Source: a virus (Duplodnaviria; Caudoviricetes). From it: a stretch of DNA of 64,000 nt. Below are positions 5,534-39,260 of this stretch, one piece after another. The DNA lies in IMG/VR virus record IMGVR_UViG_3300037692_000137, positions 64,001 to 128,000 of that record. One strand, 5' to 3'. The notes beneath the pieces were generated by a model that searched no databases, was not told where the DNA came from, and saw nothing but the letters and a program-made list of their open reading frames with translations. How positions within the stretch are numbered: the first letter of the stretch is position 1; every line of letters begins with the position of its first letter. Made by a program: the position numbers and the translations under genes.

Positions 5534-6322
5534 CTAAATTACCTCTTTTTGCGTCTCTTTCCACAAGCCGTAGCCAGCAAGAACTTCATCCTTCGTTGGA
5601 TATTTACCACAACTACGTAGTTTATTCTCAGAGCAGTAACCCGCTTGTTGGCATTTTGGCCCAACATTTTTAAAAACTACGGGTAAAGCCTCTTTACATA
5701 GGGCCAGCATCTCATTAGCCACGATACGAATTTCCCATTGTGATAATGTACAACAACGCAGGCCAAAGAAGTGTATTAAACTAACACAATTTTTTGTAGT
5801 TACAAGTCTAGTAATAGCAGCATTGGGCATAAGGTAACGAGCGTCCTCGCTCTTAATATGCAACCCTTTAAGCTTATTATACGCTTGTTGTATATACTCT
5901 AATGTATCAACATAAATCTGTTTAGCTTCTTCATTTTTAGCTATAGAAGGTGGAATTACAAAATTATTGATATCAAACTCCCCATCATTAGCCACATACC
6001 TTTGGGACTGCTGGGAATAGCTAGCCATGCGGTGACGTACATGTTGATGGCTATCAGCACGTGATATACCATCAATAGCAAATGTAAATTTCACATGTTC
6101 GAGAACACTTGTGTGTCCTGATTTAAATAGATGGTTTATTAAACCCTCTATTTCTTTATCTGTACATAAGTGGCCGTCTTTATTATCAGTGATTGATACG
6201 AAGCCTTCCTCATCTTCTTGCCAGGAATCCCCAACCCAGCCCTCAGAATAGCACTGTCGGCCGGCAGCAAATAATAGTTTTTCAGCATTAGCGGAAACAT
6301 CCAGTAATTTAATTCTTAGCAT
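5534..6322 (-). CDS. thyX: FAD-dependent thymidylate synthase
   Basis: GHTSVLEH, RHRMASYSQQSQRY (RHRx7SxR ThyX signature), ARYLMPNA, LRCC...QWEIR; start re-assigned to ATG at 6322 with GAGGT RBS. Confidence 0.95.
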   Translation of the reverse strand: MLRIKLLDVSANAEKLLFAAGRQCYSEGWVGDSWQEDEEGFVSITDNKDGHLCTDKEIEGLINHLFKSGHTSVLEHVKFTFAIDGISRADSHQHVRHRMASYSQQSQRYVANDGEFDINNFVIPPSIAKNEEAKQIYVDTLEYIQQAYNKLKGLHIKSEDARYLMPNAAITRLVTTKNCVSLIHFFGLRCCTLSQWEIRIVANEMLALCKEALPVVFKNVGPKCQQAGYCSENKLRSCGKYPTKDEVLAGYGLWKETQKEVI

Positions 6323-6551: not shown

Positions 6552-8102
6552 TTAAAACGTCTCTGCCTTTATAACATTACTAGTTTGTTGTGCTGCTACT
6601 TCAACTGTCTTAATTTTTTGTGAAACTATAGACTTAGATAAAGCATCAAAAGTTTTAACCCAAATATTACCAACCGCTGTTTGCCAATCTAAGGTGCCTG
6701 TAACAAATTTATACGCCTGTTCCGCCTTAGTCGTTGCCTCTTCATAATTATTATACACATGTAGCATCTTGTCGGTTAGATCTTCTACATCGACTAGCGG
6801 GCGTCTTACCTCGTTGTCATAAGGAAGTACTGTCCATAGGCTGGGGTTAGTACCACTTTTTACAAGGTAGCCCACATCCTCAGTAATATTTTCTATCATT
6901 GCGGTGTTTCTAGGCATAATAACGGGTGTTCTAGTGGCCATGGCCTCTATCCAGGAAAGCCCCCAACCCTCACCAAGGCTAGCACTAATTACGCAGTCAA
7001 CACAATTATATAACATATTAACTATCTCTCTCGGATAGCCTTGGTTAGGTCCAAAGTTCTGAGGAAATATTATGTCCTCTGATAGACTAAAATCGTATGC
7101 TCTGCAAACCTCTGGTAGATTCCAACCTTGATCTTGTTTAGCCATATGTAAATACAGTAAAGTGTTTGGTTCCTTTTTACGTAACTCATAAAATGCTTGA
7201 ATAGTTCTAGGAATATCTTTACGTTGCTGATTTCTATTTAAATTCATGTAGATAAACTTATCTGAGTGACGGCCAAAATAGCGTTTTCTAAAATCAATTA
7301 CTTCCTCACTAGGCAGCGGTTTAAACTCACTAGTATTAACCCCATGAGGGATTACAGACATGTTGCCAACAATTGGATATACTTCTTGGCATAGCTTTCT
7401 TCCAAAATTAGCATAGGTAACTACCTCATCACAAAAACTAATGTTCTTTACCCATTCTGGTTTTGGTGTGCCGTCAATAGGAAAGTATACTATAGACTTA
7501 AAAGGTGTCTCCCTGTTCTTTTTAAGATGTGGTATTAGCTCAGGTAAAAAGTCTAATATGAAACTATCCTGCATAAAAAACAATATATCAAAATCCATTT
7601 TGGGAATCATGTTGACAATCTTTTTACGGCCGTACGGATCTCTTTCCGCATTATTACCAACGGGCCAAATCCTATACGGAAAATTATGAGGATCGCCCCA
7701 GTAGTTTATACCCAGTACTTCAATGTCATACCTGCCAGTTCTGTGTAGTGCCTCTAAAACATTACGACTAACGGTACCAAAACCTGTTGCCAAATATCTT
7801 CGCATAAGAACGTTACTTCTTATACCGCTCTATTAGAGCTGCTGCATGTTTCCATGCAAGTTGAGACTATATCATCGACCACTTGGGCCGCCACGCGCTT
7901 CCACTCACTTGAGTGTACTTCCTTTCGGAATAGTCGTTGTACCTTCCTCTATAAAGAGGCTTGGCTCAGGATTGTCCTCGACTTGACGTTAGGAGTTTCC
8001 CTGAATTCACGTAGTTATTCGATACACATTGCTGTGTAAAGCTGCACATTATTTACAGGTAGGTGTATCCATGTAACATAAAATTTTAGTCTTTCTTTCC
8101 AT
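6552..8102 (-). CDS. GT-B fold (GT4-like) glycosyltransferase, spliced: exon 1 8102-8055, exon 2 7790-6552 (428 aa)
   Basis: AAGGAG RBS and exon 1 MERKTKILCYMDTPTC join in frame to exon 2 ATGFGTVSRNV...; exon 2 has NRNQQRKD and SASLGEGWGLSWIEAMA GT4-type motifs. Confidence 0.88.
7791..8054 (-). ncRNA. Group I self-splicing intron (IA-type, P7.1/P7.2 present), 264 nt, no internal ORF
   Basis: 5' exon ends in U and intron ends in G. P AATTCAGGGAAAC (8007-7995), Q AATCCTGAGC (7973-7964), R GTACAACGACTA (7942-7931), S GATATAGTC (7873-7865). P7 GACTA/TAGTC; P3 CTACGTG/CGCGTGG; P1 CUGU/GCAG with U-G at the splice site; P2, P7.1 and P9 close GNRA tetraloops. Confidence 0.93.
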
Positions 8103-8111
8103 AAAATCTCC

Positions 8112-8801
8112 TTAATTGTTTAATAATCTTTCACGATTACACATTAAAATTGAATACCAATTCTTGTGCCAAGTTCTATCTGTATTAGCACGAGAATTGC
8201 AACTTCTACATATAGTTATTAAATTAATAGGTCTACAGTCTTCCTTATCATAATTTATATGATGTATGGTTAACTCTTTAGTTACGCCAAAGCAACAAGG
8301 ATTCCTACAAATATTGTTATCCCTGTATTTTATAGCTTCTTTGTAAACTTTATCTTTCCAAGCGTCACAATAAGGTTTTAATGATACACCTCCTTTCCAA
8401 CTAGGGTTACCTGAACCAGTAATTTTAATAGCATGACAAGTTGGACACCTATAACCACCATTATTCCAATCTGTCCATGTCATAGTGTGTACATGCCCTA
8501 AAGGGCATTTGTATTCTAATTTAGTTTTCTGATTAGTGTACTTATCTGATAGTAAGGTGTACCCTTCTTTCAGCATAGCTCTACATATTGTAATCAAAGT
8601 GCATTTTATATTACCAGCACATTTAGCACACCTATGCCCATTTAACCAGTTGCTCCAACTTATAGAGTGTGTATGTCCTTTAGGACAAATATAAGTTAGT
8701 TTTTGTAAATTGTTAATATAAACACTACTCAATAGTATGTAACCTTCCGCAGCAAAGGACTCTCGTACATACCCATAAGTTAAGCGTTTACCTGAAGACA
8801 T
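8112..8801 (-). mobile_element. Free-standing HNH homing endonuclease with two N-terminal zinc-binding repeats
   Basis: Two EGYxLLSxxYxNxxxKLxYxCPxGHxHxxxWxxWxxGxRCxxC repeats, NPSWKGG linker, C-terminal RDNNICRNPCC...LTIHHINYDKEDCRPINLITICRSCNSRAN HNH domain. Confidence 0.85.
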
Positions 8802-33400: not shown

Positions 33401-35878
33401 ACTATAGAAAATTTCAACATCTTGACAATAGGGTTGTCTAACCCACATAATAGGCTTTGTCCTTGTTACCCCTTTAACTCTACCGCCAGTACTTTTATAA
33501 ACCACAGATATTAATATACTAGTAGAATCAAACTTTGATAGTGTGTACTCTATGGACTCCCCATCATTTATATTAGTTACATCTAAGGATAAAGGGTCAT
33601 TTAAATCGTTTACTGTTATCTTTTCAAAAGGCTCAGTAGGTACCTCATCAAAACTCCGTTTTTGGTAATAATGTAGTTTTGGTATATTAAGTTGAAATGA
33701 ACAAGGTCTTACAAAATCTTCTATATCTTTAGGTTTAACAAAAAACTGATTTACCTCAAGAGCGTCATTACACCAATCCATTATCTCCATCTCAATAGAC
33801 TTATGTTTACCGTCAACGTCTATAACGTCTAATGTTAATTTACCCTCTATTTCAAATGGCCTATGAACGTAGCTTAAATTAGGATCTGTATCAGGTAGTA
33901 TTACAAGTGCTTTACCTTTGTTACCAAAAAACTTTATATTTTCTTCCGTTAAAAATAAATCTGTAAACGCTGTAACTTTATATGATATGAAACTTGTGAT
34001 ATCAGTGCTATTTGTGTCATTGTAAACGTAAGCCACATCTCCATGCACTTTATCTTCTCTTAAACTAAGAAACTTAAATTTTACAGCCCCATTATCATTC
34101 ATATTGGCGGCAAACCTACTTTCATAGTTTGGTAATTTGTCTATTGTACCCCCGTCACCTTCAATAGAAAAAGCTGTTTGAGCTATAATACCACCACAGT
34201 ATTCTTTTTTAAAGTCTACTGTAGCAAATTCCCACGTATCCTCAGTTTTCTCCACAACCAGTATTTTATTATCACCAAAGAAAGTTTTTGCTCTGATATA
34301 AAAAGAGTTCTCGTCTTTTGGTAGTTCATTACCAGCGATACTGTCAGGCATAAATACAAGTAGGTTGTCAACTACTAGATTTAATTGGTTTTTCCAATCG
34401 TCATAGGCTTCCGCACTTTTAGCCTTAGAAACATTGTAACTACTAACATATTCAAGTAAACCAACTTTTATCGTTGATGGTAGTCGCTTATTTACATCTG
34501 GATCACTTAGGTTTATGGCGTATACATCGGCGTTATACACAAAGGAGTCGCCCCAAATAACTAAGTATTTGTGATTAAGATCCCCTGTCTCAAACACATT
34601 GTATTTATTAGTTACAGGTGGGGTATCTTCAGTACCTTCTGATATTGTTTCTGTAACCTGATCAAACACATTTCTTATTATAGGTCTAAGATTGGGTTCT
34701 TTAATTTCTTTTATTAGTGTTGGAAAACTTGTTTCTTGTGTTTCAGTTGGTATGCCATCAGTTAACGTAGTGCTATCATAAGATACGTCAAAGTAATTAA
34801 AGTGCCTAAAATAGTTTCTGGCTGCATGAATTAAAGCGGAAGTAGAGTATACTTTTGGATTAATAAATAAAGTATATGTACCTAACCAAGCATACAAATC
34901 TGGATTATCAAAAGATAGTTGATATATTGGTTGCTTAACAGTGGCGCCTAAAGCATTAGTAGACTCTACTAAGTCTGCCCAGCGTTCTCTTCTTATATAG
35001 TATCTAAGCTCTAATAGCTGCTCAGCTAATACTTTATCACCTTCCCCCATCTTGTCATCAACACAATACTGCCAACAAACACCGGTGTAATGTGGGCACT
35101 CAGGTTTAGCTCCATTACAGGGAGCTATGTAACCATAATTAACGTCATACTTATATTCCCAAAATTCTTTTACATTGTCATCTGAGCAAGTACAGTAAGT
35201 AATTATTTCATTTGCTTGACCATTTACAGTGTCAATAGAAAAATTCTCTACATTTGCTTGCCACCAATAACATTTACTGAGTTTTGCGCGAACATTAAAT
35301 ACTAAGTACGGTAAAGGTATTCTATAACCTAATTGTTGTTTGGTATAACAACCTTCTAGCATATAAGGCGTTGTATCTTCAGAACCCAGCTCTTTGGGCT
35401 TAAGTTTACCAAAGGCCATAATAAATGGGGCATAACCAGAACAGGTTATTGATGTACCATAACCATCGCATTGACCGTCATGGTATTCATTGATTGCTTT
35501 AAATGACCAGTAAGTACTGGCTTCGGAGATTGTTATTGGGTTTAAACCGTCATCGTATAAATAAACAAGCTTGCCTGTGTCTGCAATTGCTGAACCACTA
35601 GCCACAGTATGTACCCATTTCTCGCAGGTAGTTTTATTAGTTACATGTCTTGATGGGTCAGGTAGAACACACCTATTTGATCGGGCTTCACCAGGTTCAT
35701 ATTGTTTACAAACGTAGTCTGCTGTACCAAGAAGATTACAATAAGGGGCCATAGTAGCTCGTAAAAGGGTTCCTTGATCATTTGTGCCCTTATATAAACA
35801 AATTGTCATGTCATTGTCCCAGTGCATGCATACGGCTGGTTCAATGGTTGACCAATATTGACATGGATTTTTAGCCAT
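30500..35878 (-). CDS. Giant cysteine-rich virion-associated protein
   Basis: 1792 aa uninterrupted ORF in the structural block, with a dense N-terminal Cys cluster. Confidence 0.65.
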   Translation of the reverse strand: MAKNPCQYWSTIEPAVCMHWDNDMTICLYKGTNDQGTLLRATMAPYCNLLGTADYVCKQYEPGEARSNRCVLPDPSRHVTNKTTCEKWVHTVASGSAIADTGKLVYLYDDGLNPITISEASTYWSFKAINEYHDGQCDGYGTSITCSGYAPFIMAFGKLKPKELGSEDTTPYMLEGCYTKQQLGYRIPLPYLVFNVRAKLSKCYWWQANVENFSIDTVNGQANEIITYCTCSDDNVKEFWEYKYDVNYGYIAPCNGAKPECPHYTGVCWQYCVDDKMGEGDKVLAEQLLELRYYIRRERWADLVESTNALGATVKQPIYQLSFDNPDLYAWLGTYTLFINPKVYSTSALIHAARNYFRHFNYFDVSYDSTTLTDGIPTETQETSFPTLIKEIKEPNLRPIIRNVFDQVTETISEGTEDTPPVTNKYNVFETGDLNHKYLVIWGDSFVYNADVYAINLSDPDVNKRLPSTIKVGLLEYVSSYNVSKAKSAEAYDDWKNQLNLVVDNLLVFMPDSIAGNELPKDENSFYIRAKTFFGDNKILVVEKTEDTWEFATVDFKKEYCGGIIAQTAFSIEGDGGTIDKLPNYESRFAANMNDNGAVKFKFLSLREDKVHGDVAYVYNDTNSTDITSFISYKVTAFTDLFLTEENIKFFGNKGKALVILPDTDPNLSYVHRPFEIEGKLTLDVIDVDGKHKSIEMEIMDWCNDALEVNQFFVKPKDIEDFVRPCSFQLNIPKLHYYQKRSFDEVPTEPFEKITVNDLNDPLSLDVTNINDGESIEYTLSKFDSTSILISVVYKSTGGRVKGVTRTKPIMWVRQPYCQDVEIFYSWKANYTTYTLYPQGFCYGRRYSVVLETGIIGGSSPPCGDHELSTYARAGFMWYPYSACDKLASYEEISSAHISDRGVMEVFADEAADHGSHDMRMLGPVDSYGFEESHAQLWNCTCDFYYYNGKKVSDNLFNGQGFYRGGLDAIALEYCLRNSGVPPKFGDVVRGQLNSYRTMDCVTYYDLSGANAVEKKRWMPMALHYTVADISLPADYYNIDLITDDYASPFIHQLGLLQVALIDNVTIAETVDDVNRFKFGTIFRANASSTAVYPKPRPQFLIGDDATPVCSWYTYYDYPMDETKSIQWVWQEKWLEVDRSETLRDDILSAEDEHVAYSLPYESGHGRHTFISIEHPDYIFDYKKVEHQIVCDEGDHYITIVPSKNKDEYGPADNYFLIQLDNGPPRVFDIDGILLEELPTEWLFFDTIEFVGYDSTLIDNSLGLYKICLETPWVTTANLFDSTAYVSTDEGDLQNTAETDGRVYSVLDTFGDFVKYYYNRGLTISLISAMFNYLPKFTQALSANDYNWSFNAPSLLTPYDSIEVGEYYPAQIAPDLLYNPTTTNSSIIEVDFIPARKSEYKNRFITRVEIEYKFGIEPAEKEESPDTFYHIPKLTVYKKSDSGYVQIYQADRQIVTEDSEVVIIKTMSYDIPYSVEDMRRFYRYLKLEFDFTITDEELGSSGLGEYYDLYNHRISIKTINLYDTSFISATEGFKTSERKYYVSYGDYGTFPTYGNNITGSIVHPPVDEISTPMQIDTIVGILGVANSGEDFTTMHKASGRLLDRCVADKTRVPGNNVYAFEKEQKNIFDTVMRKGTDSFSATSICPPGLNGLLDMLNLKFPVWTCSFTNTLNYTLTDVLPKNTYSPCGHEWNAYVTKPKLAYNCATGGAFGRITVPDLFSWQYINPCTYDSFGGYDWIESQYYAAINRFEYGTWSTVFNALSGGIWQPSVIEYSVGTDSTVDEDSKTSQYIP

Positions 35879-36179
35879 TTATGACCTTTATATTAAATTT
35901 GCCAGTAAACTCATCAATAGTATAATGTACTTTTGTAGCGCCCTCATAAAAACCTATTGTGCGCTGTTCCACTTGAAAAGAGGCTTGATTACCCGGTATC
36001 ATAGACGCACGAGTATTAATGAAGTAAGCCTCTTTATTTAATAGGTGCCAACTTCTACCATCATAGTGTAAAGACAAACATTTTATCTGCGTTTTTGGTA
36101 TCGAAGCCCAAGAAGATTGATTTTCATTTATAGTAGTACCATCCTGTAGTTCTACTTCCCAACCTCTTCTAATTGACAT
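35871..36179 (-). CDS. Hypothetical protein
   Basis: 102 aa, overlaps both neighbours in operon fashion. Confidence 0.65.
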   Translation of the reverse strand: MSIRRGWEVELQDGTTINENQSSWASIPKTQIKCLSLHYDGRSWHLLNKEAYFINTRASMIPGNQASFQVEQRTIGFYEGATKVHYTIDEFTGKFNIKVING

Positions 36180-37605
36180 GATTGGTTCCTTTTCCTTTAT
36201 TGTATTTAACGTATTTTAAATTACCACAATCCCATATACGTGTATAGCCTTGGGCTTTCCTTAGTTCCCATTCAGAAACATCTTTTGGTTCGTCTGCCTT
36301 TTTACGAAGAGAGAACCTGTTAAATCTTTCATAACATTGATCTTTGAGATACCAATAATTAGGTTTAGTGTATTGATCAAACTCAAATCCTAATTTAGTG
36401 TATAAAGCGCCATCAGACCATCTTCTATCGGCGTAAGAAAATAACTCTAACCACGAGTAATTGCGTTCAAAATATTTTAGTAATTTTGAAGCACCCCCTA
36501 CTATCTCAGTGTTAAGCTTAGAACAAAACCTATGTAATTCCCAAACCCCCTCTTTAATTATTTTGTGTCCTTTGGCTAGGGATGGCCTGGAAAAGGTCAT
36601 TACGGCAACTAACATATCATTATATAATAAACCAAGTTTAATTGATGACCCCGCACCATACCCTTGAAGATGATTTTCTTCACAAAACATACGTGCTTGC
36701 TTTGCGTTTATGGTGGTAACTTTGCAATTACGGGCGTATATTTTAATAAAAGCTGATCTATCTATATAACTCAACAACCGTGACCGACATATTGCATTTT
36801 TGTATCTAAACTCATCAGCAAAAACCGTTATGAGCTTATAATTGTTGTTTAAACAGCCCTCCAATTTTTTTAAATGGTAGCTTTCTCCTTTACCTGTTAG
36901 TTCTGAATGCCAATATAAACCACAATACTCTATGGCAATTTTTTTATCTGGGATTACTATGTCTAATTCTTTGGGTTTACAAATAAATCTATTATTAGTA
37001 CTTACTTCAGCATGCTCTGATATAAAGCCTCTTAAAGCCTCTTCTTCTTTTGATACACCGCTACTACCACAAGTAGCACAGCGACTGCCTTTACTTGACC
37101 AATTATCCCAGGTAAAACTATAAATGTGCCCATTCGGGCATTTAGTTGTTAAATGATCTTGACAACCAATATAGTTTTCTGACATTAAATTATAGCCTTC
37201 CTGCTCCAAAGATGTTTTAATATCTAAAATATTTTTTTTTATGTTGCCATTACATAAGTAGCACCTTCGTCCTTGAAGCCATGAAGAATAGCAAATTGTG
37301 TATTTGTGCCCATGTGGGCAAACATAGTCTAATTTTTGCTTATTGTTTAGGTATTCTTTTGTTAATAAGACATAACCTTCTAATGCAAAGGACTTACGTA
37401 TCTCATCTAATGTATGTATGGGCCTCCCATTACAATAGGGACATCTGGCATCTTTGTGCAGCCAGTCAGCCCAAGCTATACTGTGTATGTGGCCTTCTGG
37501 GCATTTGTAATTAAGTTTCTTTTTGTTACTAATGTAAGTGTCACTTAATAATGTGTATCCCTCATTTTCAAAAGCTTTTCTTACAACATCTATTGTATAA
37601 CGCAT
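36169..37605 (-). mobile_element. Hef-like putative homing endonuclease: three zinc repeats, Vsr-like PD-(D/E)XK domain, C-terminal GNAT-like domain
   Basis: EGYxLL...CPxGH...RC repeats; ELDIVIPDKKIAIEYCGLYWHS; NHLQG...WELHRFC...GGASKLL...SYADRRW...IWDCG. Confidence 0.8.
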
Positions 37606-37685
37606 TTAATTCCCTTACCGAGAGTTACTAGGTTAGAGGAGTGGGTAAGCACCCCTCAACGTCCGTCAACGCTGTCCCTAATGTG
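37606..37685 (-). promoter_or_regulatory. Structured 5' leader of the endonuclease gene (hairpin plus predicted pseudoknot over the RBS)
   Basis: Stem GAGGGGTG/CACTCCTC (37657-37636) with loop CTTACC complementary to GGTAAG (37619-37614) in the Shine-Dalgarno region. Confidence 0.55.
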
Positions 37686-37706
37686 TTTAATAACTTCATT
37701 TAATTA

Positions 37707-39260
37707 TTACGCGAAATCAAAGAATGTTCTCTGATTGATTTGGCTATTTGCCCCTGTCTCGCTTGCACCTAAACGTATATTAACAAATATTGGGTCGCTT
37801 GTCAAGCCAATATTTCCTACACTCTCACTATCATCAGCTGTGGCTACAACTAACATGTTGGCTACAGTATGATATAGATAGGCAGGAGGTGTATTACTAT
37901 CTATATCCGCGGCAGTTATACCTGGATACCATTCTATACCATTTTCTGGGGCTATACCAGCATTACTACCTGGCCCTACGGTGCCAAATCTAAAATAAGT
38001 GTCATTGTTGCCAGCCTCATGGTGTGAAAAACTTCCATGACTCTGTAAACCAAATTTTATTGAGCTTGCCTGTACAGCTCCGGAAACAATTTCAAACATA
38101 ACGCATTTAACTGGACTCTCAGTAGACACAGTAACGTTTCCATAATTAAGGCTGGTTATATCATAGGATTTTGGTTTAGGTCCTGAGCATATGATATTAA
38201 ACTCATCACGTATGCCTAAGTAGTCAGAAGGCCCTGTGGGCTCAAATTTAATATATAGGCCTCTTGTACCTAATCGTACCCAATTACCCTCTGATGGGGT
38301 CGTGGCGGCTGCTCCCATGTCCCCTCTTGTGGATGAGTAAGCAAACATAGCAGAACCTGCTGGATCTGTAACATTAGTGCCACTAGTATAGTCAGGTTTA
38401 TAGCAAGGTACTGTCCAATATCCCGCTGAGAAAACAGCATCTGTAAACTTAATCATAAGCCCACGAGTACCTATCTTATACCAATGGTTTGCATATAGAA
38501 GCTCTGTGGCTACAGTAGAGTTATCCGCAGAAGGAGATGCTGACCAAGTCATCATAGGCACATTACCTGTTCCTCCGCCCATAGTGGTTCCATTAGTTAT
38601 ATCTATAGTTATGGTGTATGTCGTATCCGCACTATCATTATATACACCTCCGGTGGTCATAATACCACCGTAGGTAATAACTTTTGAGGCTGTACCTATC
38701 CCTCTTGCGGCGTCATTATCATTAGTTATGACTACCTTGTATGTTTCATCAAAGAAGCCCTTATACGTTCCGGAGACTGTTACTGTTCCAGCAAAGGTAT
38801 TAGCTGTGGCTAAACCTCCAACCTCACTTTTTGTGCTAAAACCTAGTGTGGCATGCACCGTATTTGTGCCACTTATAACAGCAACAGTCGATGCTACTCC
38901 CATAGTACCCGAGTATATTTTAAAACAATTACCTTGACCGGCTGTATTAGTCCACTCACAAACGGCCTTATCCCAGCGCTCATCACTCTTACCTAAGTCA
39001 TGCATTTTTTCTGTAATATCTTTAGCCACAAATCTCGGATCAAGAGCTGTACCAGGATAAAGAGTGATGTATGCACCAGGATCTCCATCCATTGATAAGT
39101 AAAGCCTGTTATTAGCAGGACCTATAGTAAATGTGTCCCCTACAGCAGCCGTAGCAGTAGATGAAGCACGGGCTCCAACACAGCCGGCGCCCCTTCCGTC
39201 ACCGTAGTCACCTGCTGTGGCCGGATCAATTTCTACCCATCTTGTAATTACGCCGCTCAT
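37707..39260 (-). CDS. Virion structural protein (tail or baseplate associated)
   Basis: 517 aa, G/T/A-rich; internal repeat WxxxGTRGLxIKF; AAGGAGG RBS. Confidence 0.6.
   Translation of the reverse strand: MSGVITRWVEIDPATAGDYGDGRGAGCVGARASSTATAAVGDTFTIGPANNRLYLSMDGDPGAYITLYPGTALDPRFVAKDITEKMHDLGKSDERWDKAVCEWTNTAGQGNCFKIYSGTMGVASTVAVISGTNTVHATLGFSTKSEVGGLATANTFAGTVTVSGTYKGFFDETYKVVITNDNDAARGIGTASKVITYGGIMTTGGVYNDSADTTYTITIDITNGTTMGGGTGNVPMMTWSASPSADNSTVATELLYANHWYKIGTRGLMIKFTDAVFSAGYWTVPCYKPDYTSGTNVTDPAGSAMFAYSSTRGDMGAAATTPSEGNWVRLGTRGLYIKFEPTGPSDYLGIRDEFNIICSGPKPKSYDITSLNYGNVTVSTESPVKCVMFEIVSGAVQASSIKFGLQSHGSFSHHEAGNNDTYFRFGTVGPGSNAGIAPENGIEWYPGITAADIDSNTPPAYLYHTVANMLVVATADDSESVGNIGLTSDPIFVNIRLGASETGANSQINQRTFFDFA

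Follow-up and report, generated by a model that had tools for sequence, protein, structure and literature searches.

A candidate pseudoknotted leader RNA in front of unrelated homing-endonuclease genes of uncultured phages

The leader of a Hef-like homing-endonuclease gene in an uncultured phage contains a hairpin whose loop is complementary to the ribosome-binding site of the gene, and comparison with related leaders indicates that this pairing between the loop and the Shine-Dalgarno (SD) region is a real pseudoknot, conserved and covarying. The leader, at positions 37603-37686 on the minus strand, is a single copy of an RNA of ca 85-95 nt which, judged from the sequences, is found in front of at least five different types of homing endonuclease, or of the scar of one. 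All positions given without a prefix refer to the window, by which we mean the whole stretch of 64,000 nucleotides that was analysed, that is, positions 64,001 to 128,000 of the IMG/VR record IMGVR_UViG_3300037692_000137, a 234-kb uncultured phage.

All genes around the leader lie on the minus strand, and the same strand bears every feature of the leader. The nuclease gene (36169-37605, 478 aa) was assigned to phrog_559 with an E value of 5e-109, and its homologues carry the annotation 'Hef-like homing endonuclease' in the Bacillus phages AR9 and PBS1 as well as in phages of Campylobacter. A gap of 101 nt separates it from the upstream gene of the structural block (37707-39260, 517 aa), which is of unknown function and is present in 20 related loci; for the protein, no Pfam, PHROG or PDB match was obtained, and in the Atlas only unnamed clusters. 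On the other side, the start of a gene for 102 aa (35871-36179) overlaps the end of the nuclease gene.

The hairpin and its complement, as given in the preliminary description of this DNA, were confirmed by their coordinates. Namely, the 8-bp stem is formed by GAGGGGUG (37657-37650) and CACUCCUC (37643-37636), with one G-U among the eight pairs, and the loop CUUACC (37649-37644) is exactly complementary to GGUAAG (37619-37614), which is located at −14 to −9 relative to the AUG (37605-37603). This hexamer overlaps the SD site UAAGGG of the nuclease gene (37612-37617), which ends 6 nt 5' of the AUG and has four of its nucleotides inside the pseudoknot. The SD site is assigned on the basis of its position and of the genome-wide use of such sites, which is strong: among the 248 genes, 37 have TAAGG between −20 and −4 and 72 have AGGAG there, compared to 3 and 2, respectively, in a control window. 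The additional pairings CAGCGUU/GACGUUG and, as an outer helix, UUAGG/CCUAG are both present in the window leader, and its minimum-free-energy fold contains all three stems together (−31.6 kcal/mol, z −2.15). The sequence that follows the hairpin is UAACCUAGUAAC. The features of an intrinsic terminator are missing here, as there is no terminator-like site in 37606-37706 and no U-tract after the element.

Taken alone, the window copy is weak evidence, being only mildly unusual: when the leader was shuffled 5000 times with its dinucleotides preserved, a 6-nt complement between loop and SD arose 15 times (0.3%), and such a complement is found at 3 of the genome's 248 genes. In L028, a metagenome contig, the same leader stands in front of a 96%-identical nuclease (P0001), with four substitutions, all outside the paired parts and two of them in the linker at 37620-37626. 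This placement has a probability of ca 0.1 by chance and is uninformative. We have also considered the accessibility of the ribosome-binding site. When the pseudoknot is left out, the opening energy is 4.5 kcal/mol, compared to a genome median of 6.4 kcal/mol (rank 203 of 248), and occlusion by the nested fold alone was rejected, since the site is more open than the median. The nested ensemble leaves the ribosome-binding site easy to open, and any occlusion therefore depends on the pseudoknot. The decisive evidence for the latter is, in our judgement, comparative.

A covariance model, R1, was built only from the leaders of the window and of its 96%-identical twin L028. It matched directly after the homologue of the 517-aa gene in L021, L008, L009 (identical to L012), L010 and L011, with E values from 3e-7 to 6e-3. 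Pattern scans on the shared core added copies in G001 (116 kb) and G002 (82 kb), neither of which has a homologue of the 517-aa protein, and in L074 (identical to L075) and L090. With the filters turned off, R1 also scored copies already located by these scans, namely those of L072, L073, L074 and L090, giving 11 matches with E values from 4e-29 to 1e-3. There are thus 11 copies in total, 9 of them distinct in sequence and all from uncultured phages, and those in L008-L012, L021 and L090 directly follow a homologue of the 517-aa gene. The number of copies is a lower bound, since the collections were scanned by exact patterns only and divergent copies are missed in this way.

The bare core pattern gave 51 further matches in IMG/VR, and all 51 fail the pairing of the second helix, P2. 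The chance matches in GTDB each lack at least one of three features, namely full P2 pairing, the P3 hairpin and the complement required for the pseudoknot. Relaxed core patterns yielded only L074/L075 and L090, while their other matches fail the helices. With the model R2, no second copy was detected in the whole phage records G000, G001 and G002, which thus hold one copy each, and no copy in 51 other loci. The exact 22-mer of the hairpin had no match in IMG/VR, and a BLAST search with two copies against 50,697 records of cultured phages returned only chance matches to the AT-rich tail.

The comparison of the copies indicates that the 8-bp stem, the pairing next to it and the outer pairing are the helices P3, P2 and P1, respectively, of one three-way junction. 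The consensus begins with P1, of 5-8 bp and closing in GG/CC, which is followed by the junction G-R, by P2 (CAG-NNNN/NNNN-UUG with the loop GACG), by a variable P3 of 6-9 bp with a loop of 6-10 nt that starts with C's, by UAA and by the 3' strand of P1. Then come an AU-rich linker, a 6-7-nt complement of the P3 loop that ends in the first G's of the SD, and 7-13 nt up to the AUG. In the window, the 5' strand of P1, the closing helix of the junction, is AUUAGG (37677-37682), which pairs with CCUAGU (37627-37632) according to both the minimum-free-energy fold and covariation, and four of the six pairs have changes on both sides among the relatives. The junction J1/2 is GA (37675-37676; GG in L028), and a G followed by R is present here in all 11 copies. 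P2 occupies 37657-37674; its CAG/UUG pairs and its loop GACG (37664-37667) are invariant, and its inner four base pairs are formed in all 11 copies with six different sequences. P3 (37636-37657) shares G37657 with the base of P2, and double-sided changes are observed in seven of its eight pairs. The junction J3/1, UAA (37633-37635), is in the same register in 10 of the 11 copies and is shifted in L074. The linker from P1 to the pseudoknot partner is AACUCUC (37620-37626) in the window, and in the relatives it is AU-rich and often ends in AACYU.

In the alignment A6, which is model-guided and hence biased towards the model to which it was fitted, 96.7% of the cells of the nested helices are paired, compared to 72% in shuffles, and 14 of 20 pairs have changes on both sides; none of 500 shuffles matches these measures. 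If the partner columns are slid by 1-3 positions, the pairing falls to 34-52%. As an independent check, single-sequence folding recovered P1, P2 and P3 in 7 of the 11 copies. The CAGCGUU/GACGUUG and UUAGG/CCUAG pairings had been described as competing with the 8-bp stem; their presence stands, but the competition does not, since P2 and P1 covary together in one junction. Conserved G-U pairs, including an invariant one in P2, are found only on the mRNA strand, and the fold is therefore a feature of the RNA of the sense transcript.

The pseudoknot was scored separately from the nested helices. Its strands in the window are the P3 loop (37644-37649) and the complement that contains the first nucleotides of the SD (37614-37619), and over the copies there are eight distinct loop sequences, each with its own complement at the SD. 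The window loop CUUACC pairs with GGUAAG, and the other combinations are CCUUGCU with AGCAUGG (with one U-U mismatch), CCGUUCU with AGAACGG, CCUAUUA with UAAUAGG, CCCAGU with ACUGGG, CCCUUAA with UUAAGGG, CCUCAAU with AUUGAGG and CCCUAAC with GUUAGGG. Altogether, 53 of 54 pairs are Watson-Crick, and 37 of 38 at variable positions, so that the pseudoknot proposed from the window alone was found to be both conserved and covarying. The own loop and partner match over 6-7 nt, while loops set against the tails of other copies mostly match over 3-5 nt. About 3 in 100,000 permutations of the partners reach the observed pairing, which is approximately the number of identity permutations expected by chance.

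The genes behind the motif are of different kinds. In the window and in L028 it is the Hef-like nuclease; in L021, a protein with HTH, NUMOD3 and endonuclease-I-like parts; in L008, one with zinc-repeat, NUMOD3 and endonuclease-I-like parts; in G002, an I-HmuI-like HNH gene with NUMOD1/3; and in L074, a protein with NUMOD3 and a C-terminal HNH motif, this last one read directly from its sequence and not from a Pfam or PHROG scan. In G001, the motif precedes an HNH gene assigned to phrog_374, and both are located in the 3' portion of a group I intron (RF00028, E 9e-18) by which a portal gene is interrupted. This is the only copy located within a group I intron, and around the window copy there is no match to RF00028. 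The portal gene in question belongs to phrog_2739 (L073:1146-2350, corresponding to G001:C1:81032-82236), and its intron holds both the motif and the HNH gene.

In L009, L010, L011 and L090, the motif is followed only by ORFs of 11-28 aa. The one in L010 starts with the first ca 9 codons of an L008-type nuclease, after which it is joined to the next structural gene, and it is a deletion scar of the nuclease. In the nuclease-less loci L009 (5658-5700) and L011 (5657-5705), the short ORF ends in TAATG, overlapping the start of a giant structural gene, and the leader may therefore have been co-opted to control that gene by translational coupling. The leader is linked to homing endonucleases in general, and it outlasts them.

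It was initially suggested that the motif travels with the Hef-like family, and this suggestion had to be abandoned. A paralogue in the same genome (54% identity) and the gene that occupies the corresponding slot of L016 (52% identity) both have AT-rich, unstructured leaders, and the motif is absent from these two and from 19 further leaders of homologues. Among the 21 distinct leaders of nuclease homologues, no 6-nt match between a loop and the SD was found, and viral scans with the nuclease homologues P0002 (66%) and P0011 returned only distant genes. The other nuclease genes of the window genome are without the motif.

Concerning the slot itself, the closest relatives of the window, L006 and L007, whose 517-aa protein is 95% identical, have neither the nuclease gene nor the leader. 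Instead, a canonical terminator consisting of a hairpin and a T-run is found at this place, and the ribosome site of the 102-aa gene that comes next is the same. In the window and in L028, the nuclease ORF extends across the ribosome-binding site of the following gene and into its start (36169-36179 in the window). The C-terminal tail of the nuclease in these two, GKGTNHVN, is absent from homologues of 58-66% identity, and this overlap tail marks the 3' junction of the nuclease insertion. In the loci L013-L025, the gap between the 517-aa and the 102-aa genes varies from ca 55 to 3100 nt, with differing inserts. This position behind the 517-aa gene is a hot spot of gene insertion.

We now compare the leader with known RNAs. 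In scans of the window and of the motif-bearing loci with Rfam 15, no family matched the motif and no riboswitch or ribozyme was detected, which agrees with the preliminary suggestion of a possibly new cis-regulatory RNA motif. The leader RNA family is new to Rfam, and it is a member neither of int-alpA nor of the T4 hairpins. The int-alpA motif (RF02996) reportedly originates from a comparative-genomics survey by Weinberg et al. in 2017; it is not named in the main text of PMC5737381. The two RNAs have several similarities. Also int-alpA has a three-way junction in which P1 is the closing helix and P2 and P3 are the other arms (true members have this same topology), its P3 loop CCUU complements an AAGG located a short linker after P1, and both RNAs are associated with phages. 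The junctions, however, are CUA, CGAAAA and CU in int-alpA, compared to GR, none and UAA in the present motif; the P2 of int-alpA has 4 bp and a variable loop, whereas that of the motif has 7 bp and the invariant GACG loop; and the AAGG partner lies ca 25 nt before the AUG in the one example considered and is not the gene's own SD. The RF02996 model (gathering score 35.8 bits) gave no match at E values up to 10 in 37595-37700 of the window, no match at the motif at E values up to 10 in the whole records G000, G001 and G002, and no match at E values up to 1 in L065, L072, L074, L090 and L028. As a positive control, the same model matches four true members in Enterobacterales genomes with 37-47 bits. 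In the reciprocal test, R2 gave no match on the true int-alpA loci L095-L097.

Structures that sequester the ribosome-binding site regulate I-TevI, I-TevII, I-TevIII, segB and mobE of Aeh1 (PMC2988022). In the T-even phages, this masking limits translation of the nuclease and protects the splicing and folding of the intron, and a T4 late promoter lets late transcripts escape the masking structure (PMC2988022). The present leader resembles these hairpins in that a structure in cis pairs with the SD of a homing-endonuclease gene, intron-encoded or free-standing, and in that the gene is carried on long transcripts of neighbouring genes. The T-even hairpins are, however, simple and gene-specific with no shared sequence, whereas the motif is one conserved junction with a pseudoknot before unrelated nucleases; moreover, the former are bypassed by the late promoter, and no bypass promoter was found in the window leader. 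A further comparison can be made with H-type pseudoknots that act as translational operators, such as the T4 gene 32 leader and E. coli rpsO/S15, which are bound by the protein that they regulate. Here too, the strand that pairs with the loop of a hairpin lies downstream of it, where the ribosome lands, and the second stem has 6-7 bp. The differences are that the proteins regulated through the motif belong to different families, and that its pseudoknot partner is outside the closing helix of a three-way junction.

From the geometry of the leader, and by analogy with the T4 hairpins at the ribosome-binding sites of homing endonucleases, we infer that the leader represses translation. The reading that we favour, and consider reasonably probable, is that the pseudoknot masks the ribosome-binding site of the nuclease and lowers its translation, with leader and nuclease constituting a mobile cassette. 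The compact fold would hide the ribosome landing site and thereby block or slow the binding of the 30S subunit. Read-through transcripts, either of the neighbouring structural (late) gene or of the host intron, would then yield little nuclease, and its low level would limit both toxicity and interference with the host gene. Leader and nuclease would move and recombine together as a cassette, in which the nuclease ORF may later be replaced or deleted while the leader stays.

Some structural aspects of this proposal can be specified. The partner of the P3 loop comprises the 5' half of the SD together with the 4-5 nt in front of it. As the pseudoknot spans only the first 2-4 SD nucleotides and the duplex energy is moderate across the copies (−5.4 to −9.0 kcal/mol), it could tune translation rather than block it. 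In a pseudoknot with a helix of 6-7 bp, a minimal linker can cross the deep groove. All 6-7 loop nucleotides of the motif are paired, with no spare linker, and in the model the top P3 pair therefore probably opens, leaving one-nucleotide linkers.

An alternative that we regard as unlikely, but still worth weighing, is that the leader is a regulated switch and not a fixed brake, i.e. a riboswitch-like sensor for an ion or a small molecule, an operator bound by a protein of the phage or of the host, or an element with an internal late promoter as in T4, whose transcripts would be without the masking arm. The G-R, the UAA, the CAG/UUG and the GACG are invariant while the helices vary, as is commonly the case with binding pockets or tertiary contacts, the element is found in unrelated phages, and promoter-dependent escape has its precedent in T4 (PMC2988022). 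On the other hand, no conserved alternative pairing was found and the named stems coexist; as the supposedly competing stems covary together as arms of one junction, the switch put forward in the preliminary description is not supported. Furthermore, a promoter search of the window leader revealed no sigma-70-like site, although the phage's own promoters may differ, and the gene context suggests no ligand. Autoregulation by the encoded protein is also unlikely, because the downstream proteins are of different families. The invariant junction and the GACG loop go beyond the needs of masking, and they hint at a partner or at tertiary contacts. That they would make up a binding pocket, such that the RNA is a true sensor (riboswitch, or operator for some widely shared factor) or else a catalytic RNA of small size, and gates selfish nucleases of many unrelated phages as a portable cassette behind which the nuclease ORFs are exchanged, seems to us quite doubtful.

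We find it improbable that the element serves the processing or stability of the RNA, be it as a self-cleaving ribozyme, as an RNase site or as a protective 3' structure for the upstream mRNA, since neither a ribozyme nor any other Rfam family matches it, a U-tract is missing after it, and the spacing between the AUG and its 3' strand, in which the G's of the SD are invariably contained, is fixed. The position directly after the 517-aa gene in 8 related phages, four of them without the nuclease, would fit such a role, as would the canonical terminator that takes up the same slot in L006/L007, where the homing-endonuclease gene is missing, but the copies in G001, G002 and L074 occur without the 517-aa gene. 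Small ribozymes are, admittedly, of comparable size to the junction with its pseudoknot. Homing endonucleases target conserved sequence, and different nuclease ORFs are found behind the same leader in one genomic slot; the leader could thus be a homing or recombination site recognised by the nucleases at the DNA level, the RNA fold being incidental. We consider this highly improbable, as four helices covary and keep their pairing while the sequence changes, unlike a protein recognition site, the fold is strand-specific through its G-U pairs, and unrelated nuclease families would not share one target. Finally, coincidental complementarity between loop and SD in an unremarkable structured spacer would be compatible with the modest single-copy statistics given above (15 of 5000 shuffles, 3 of 248 genes) and with the four differences of L028, but it is scarcely credible, being refuted by the covariation over the eight loop/partner sets and the three nested helices.

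Homing endonucleases are widespread selfish genes that need restrained expression, and to our knowledge the few gene-specific hairpins of T-even phages are so far the only cases from which this restraint is understood. That one conserved fold precedes at least five nuclease types which are unrelated to each other, some free-standing and some intron-encoded, suggests a modular brake on translation that is portable among mobile nucleases. The motif also offers a testable function for the architecturally similar int-alpA. With its ca 90 nt and its simple pairing rule, it lends itself to testing and might serve as a translation attenuator that can be tuned. Because the leader outlasts the nuclease, it also marks the sites of nuclease gain and loss.

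A few further observations concern the surrounding sequences. The copy in L090 is on the GTDB contig CAZNER010000140.1 (3.9 kb), which is filed under a Candidatus Saccharibacteria MAG. On this contig, the motif is accompanied by genes of the present phage family, namely those for the C-terminal part of the 517-aa protein and for the 102-aa protein, which are 58% and 51% identical, respectively, and for the N-terminal part of the giant protein. Either a phage contig was binned with this MAG, or the contig gives a clue to the host. In L006, the terminator hairpin that follows the 517-aa gene (5554-5630, the same in L007) is GGTAAGATAC-TAAC-GTATCTTACC, and it contains the hexamers of the window pseudoknot, GGTAAG and CTTACC, in reverse order, which may be due to chance or be the scar of a rearrangement. 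Elsewhere in the window, a group I intron was identified on the minus strand at 7842-8064 (Rfam RF00028, 83.5 bits, E 2e-19). It is flanked by the ORF 6552-7805 and by a nuclease-like ORF at 8112-8801, the latter sharing 45% identity with the N-terminal zinc-repeat part of the Hef-like gene.
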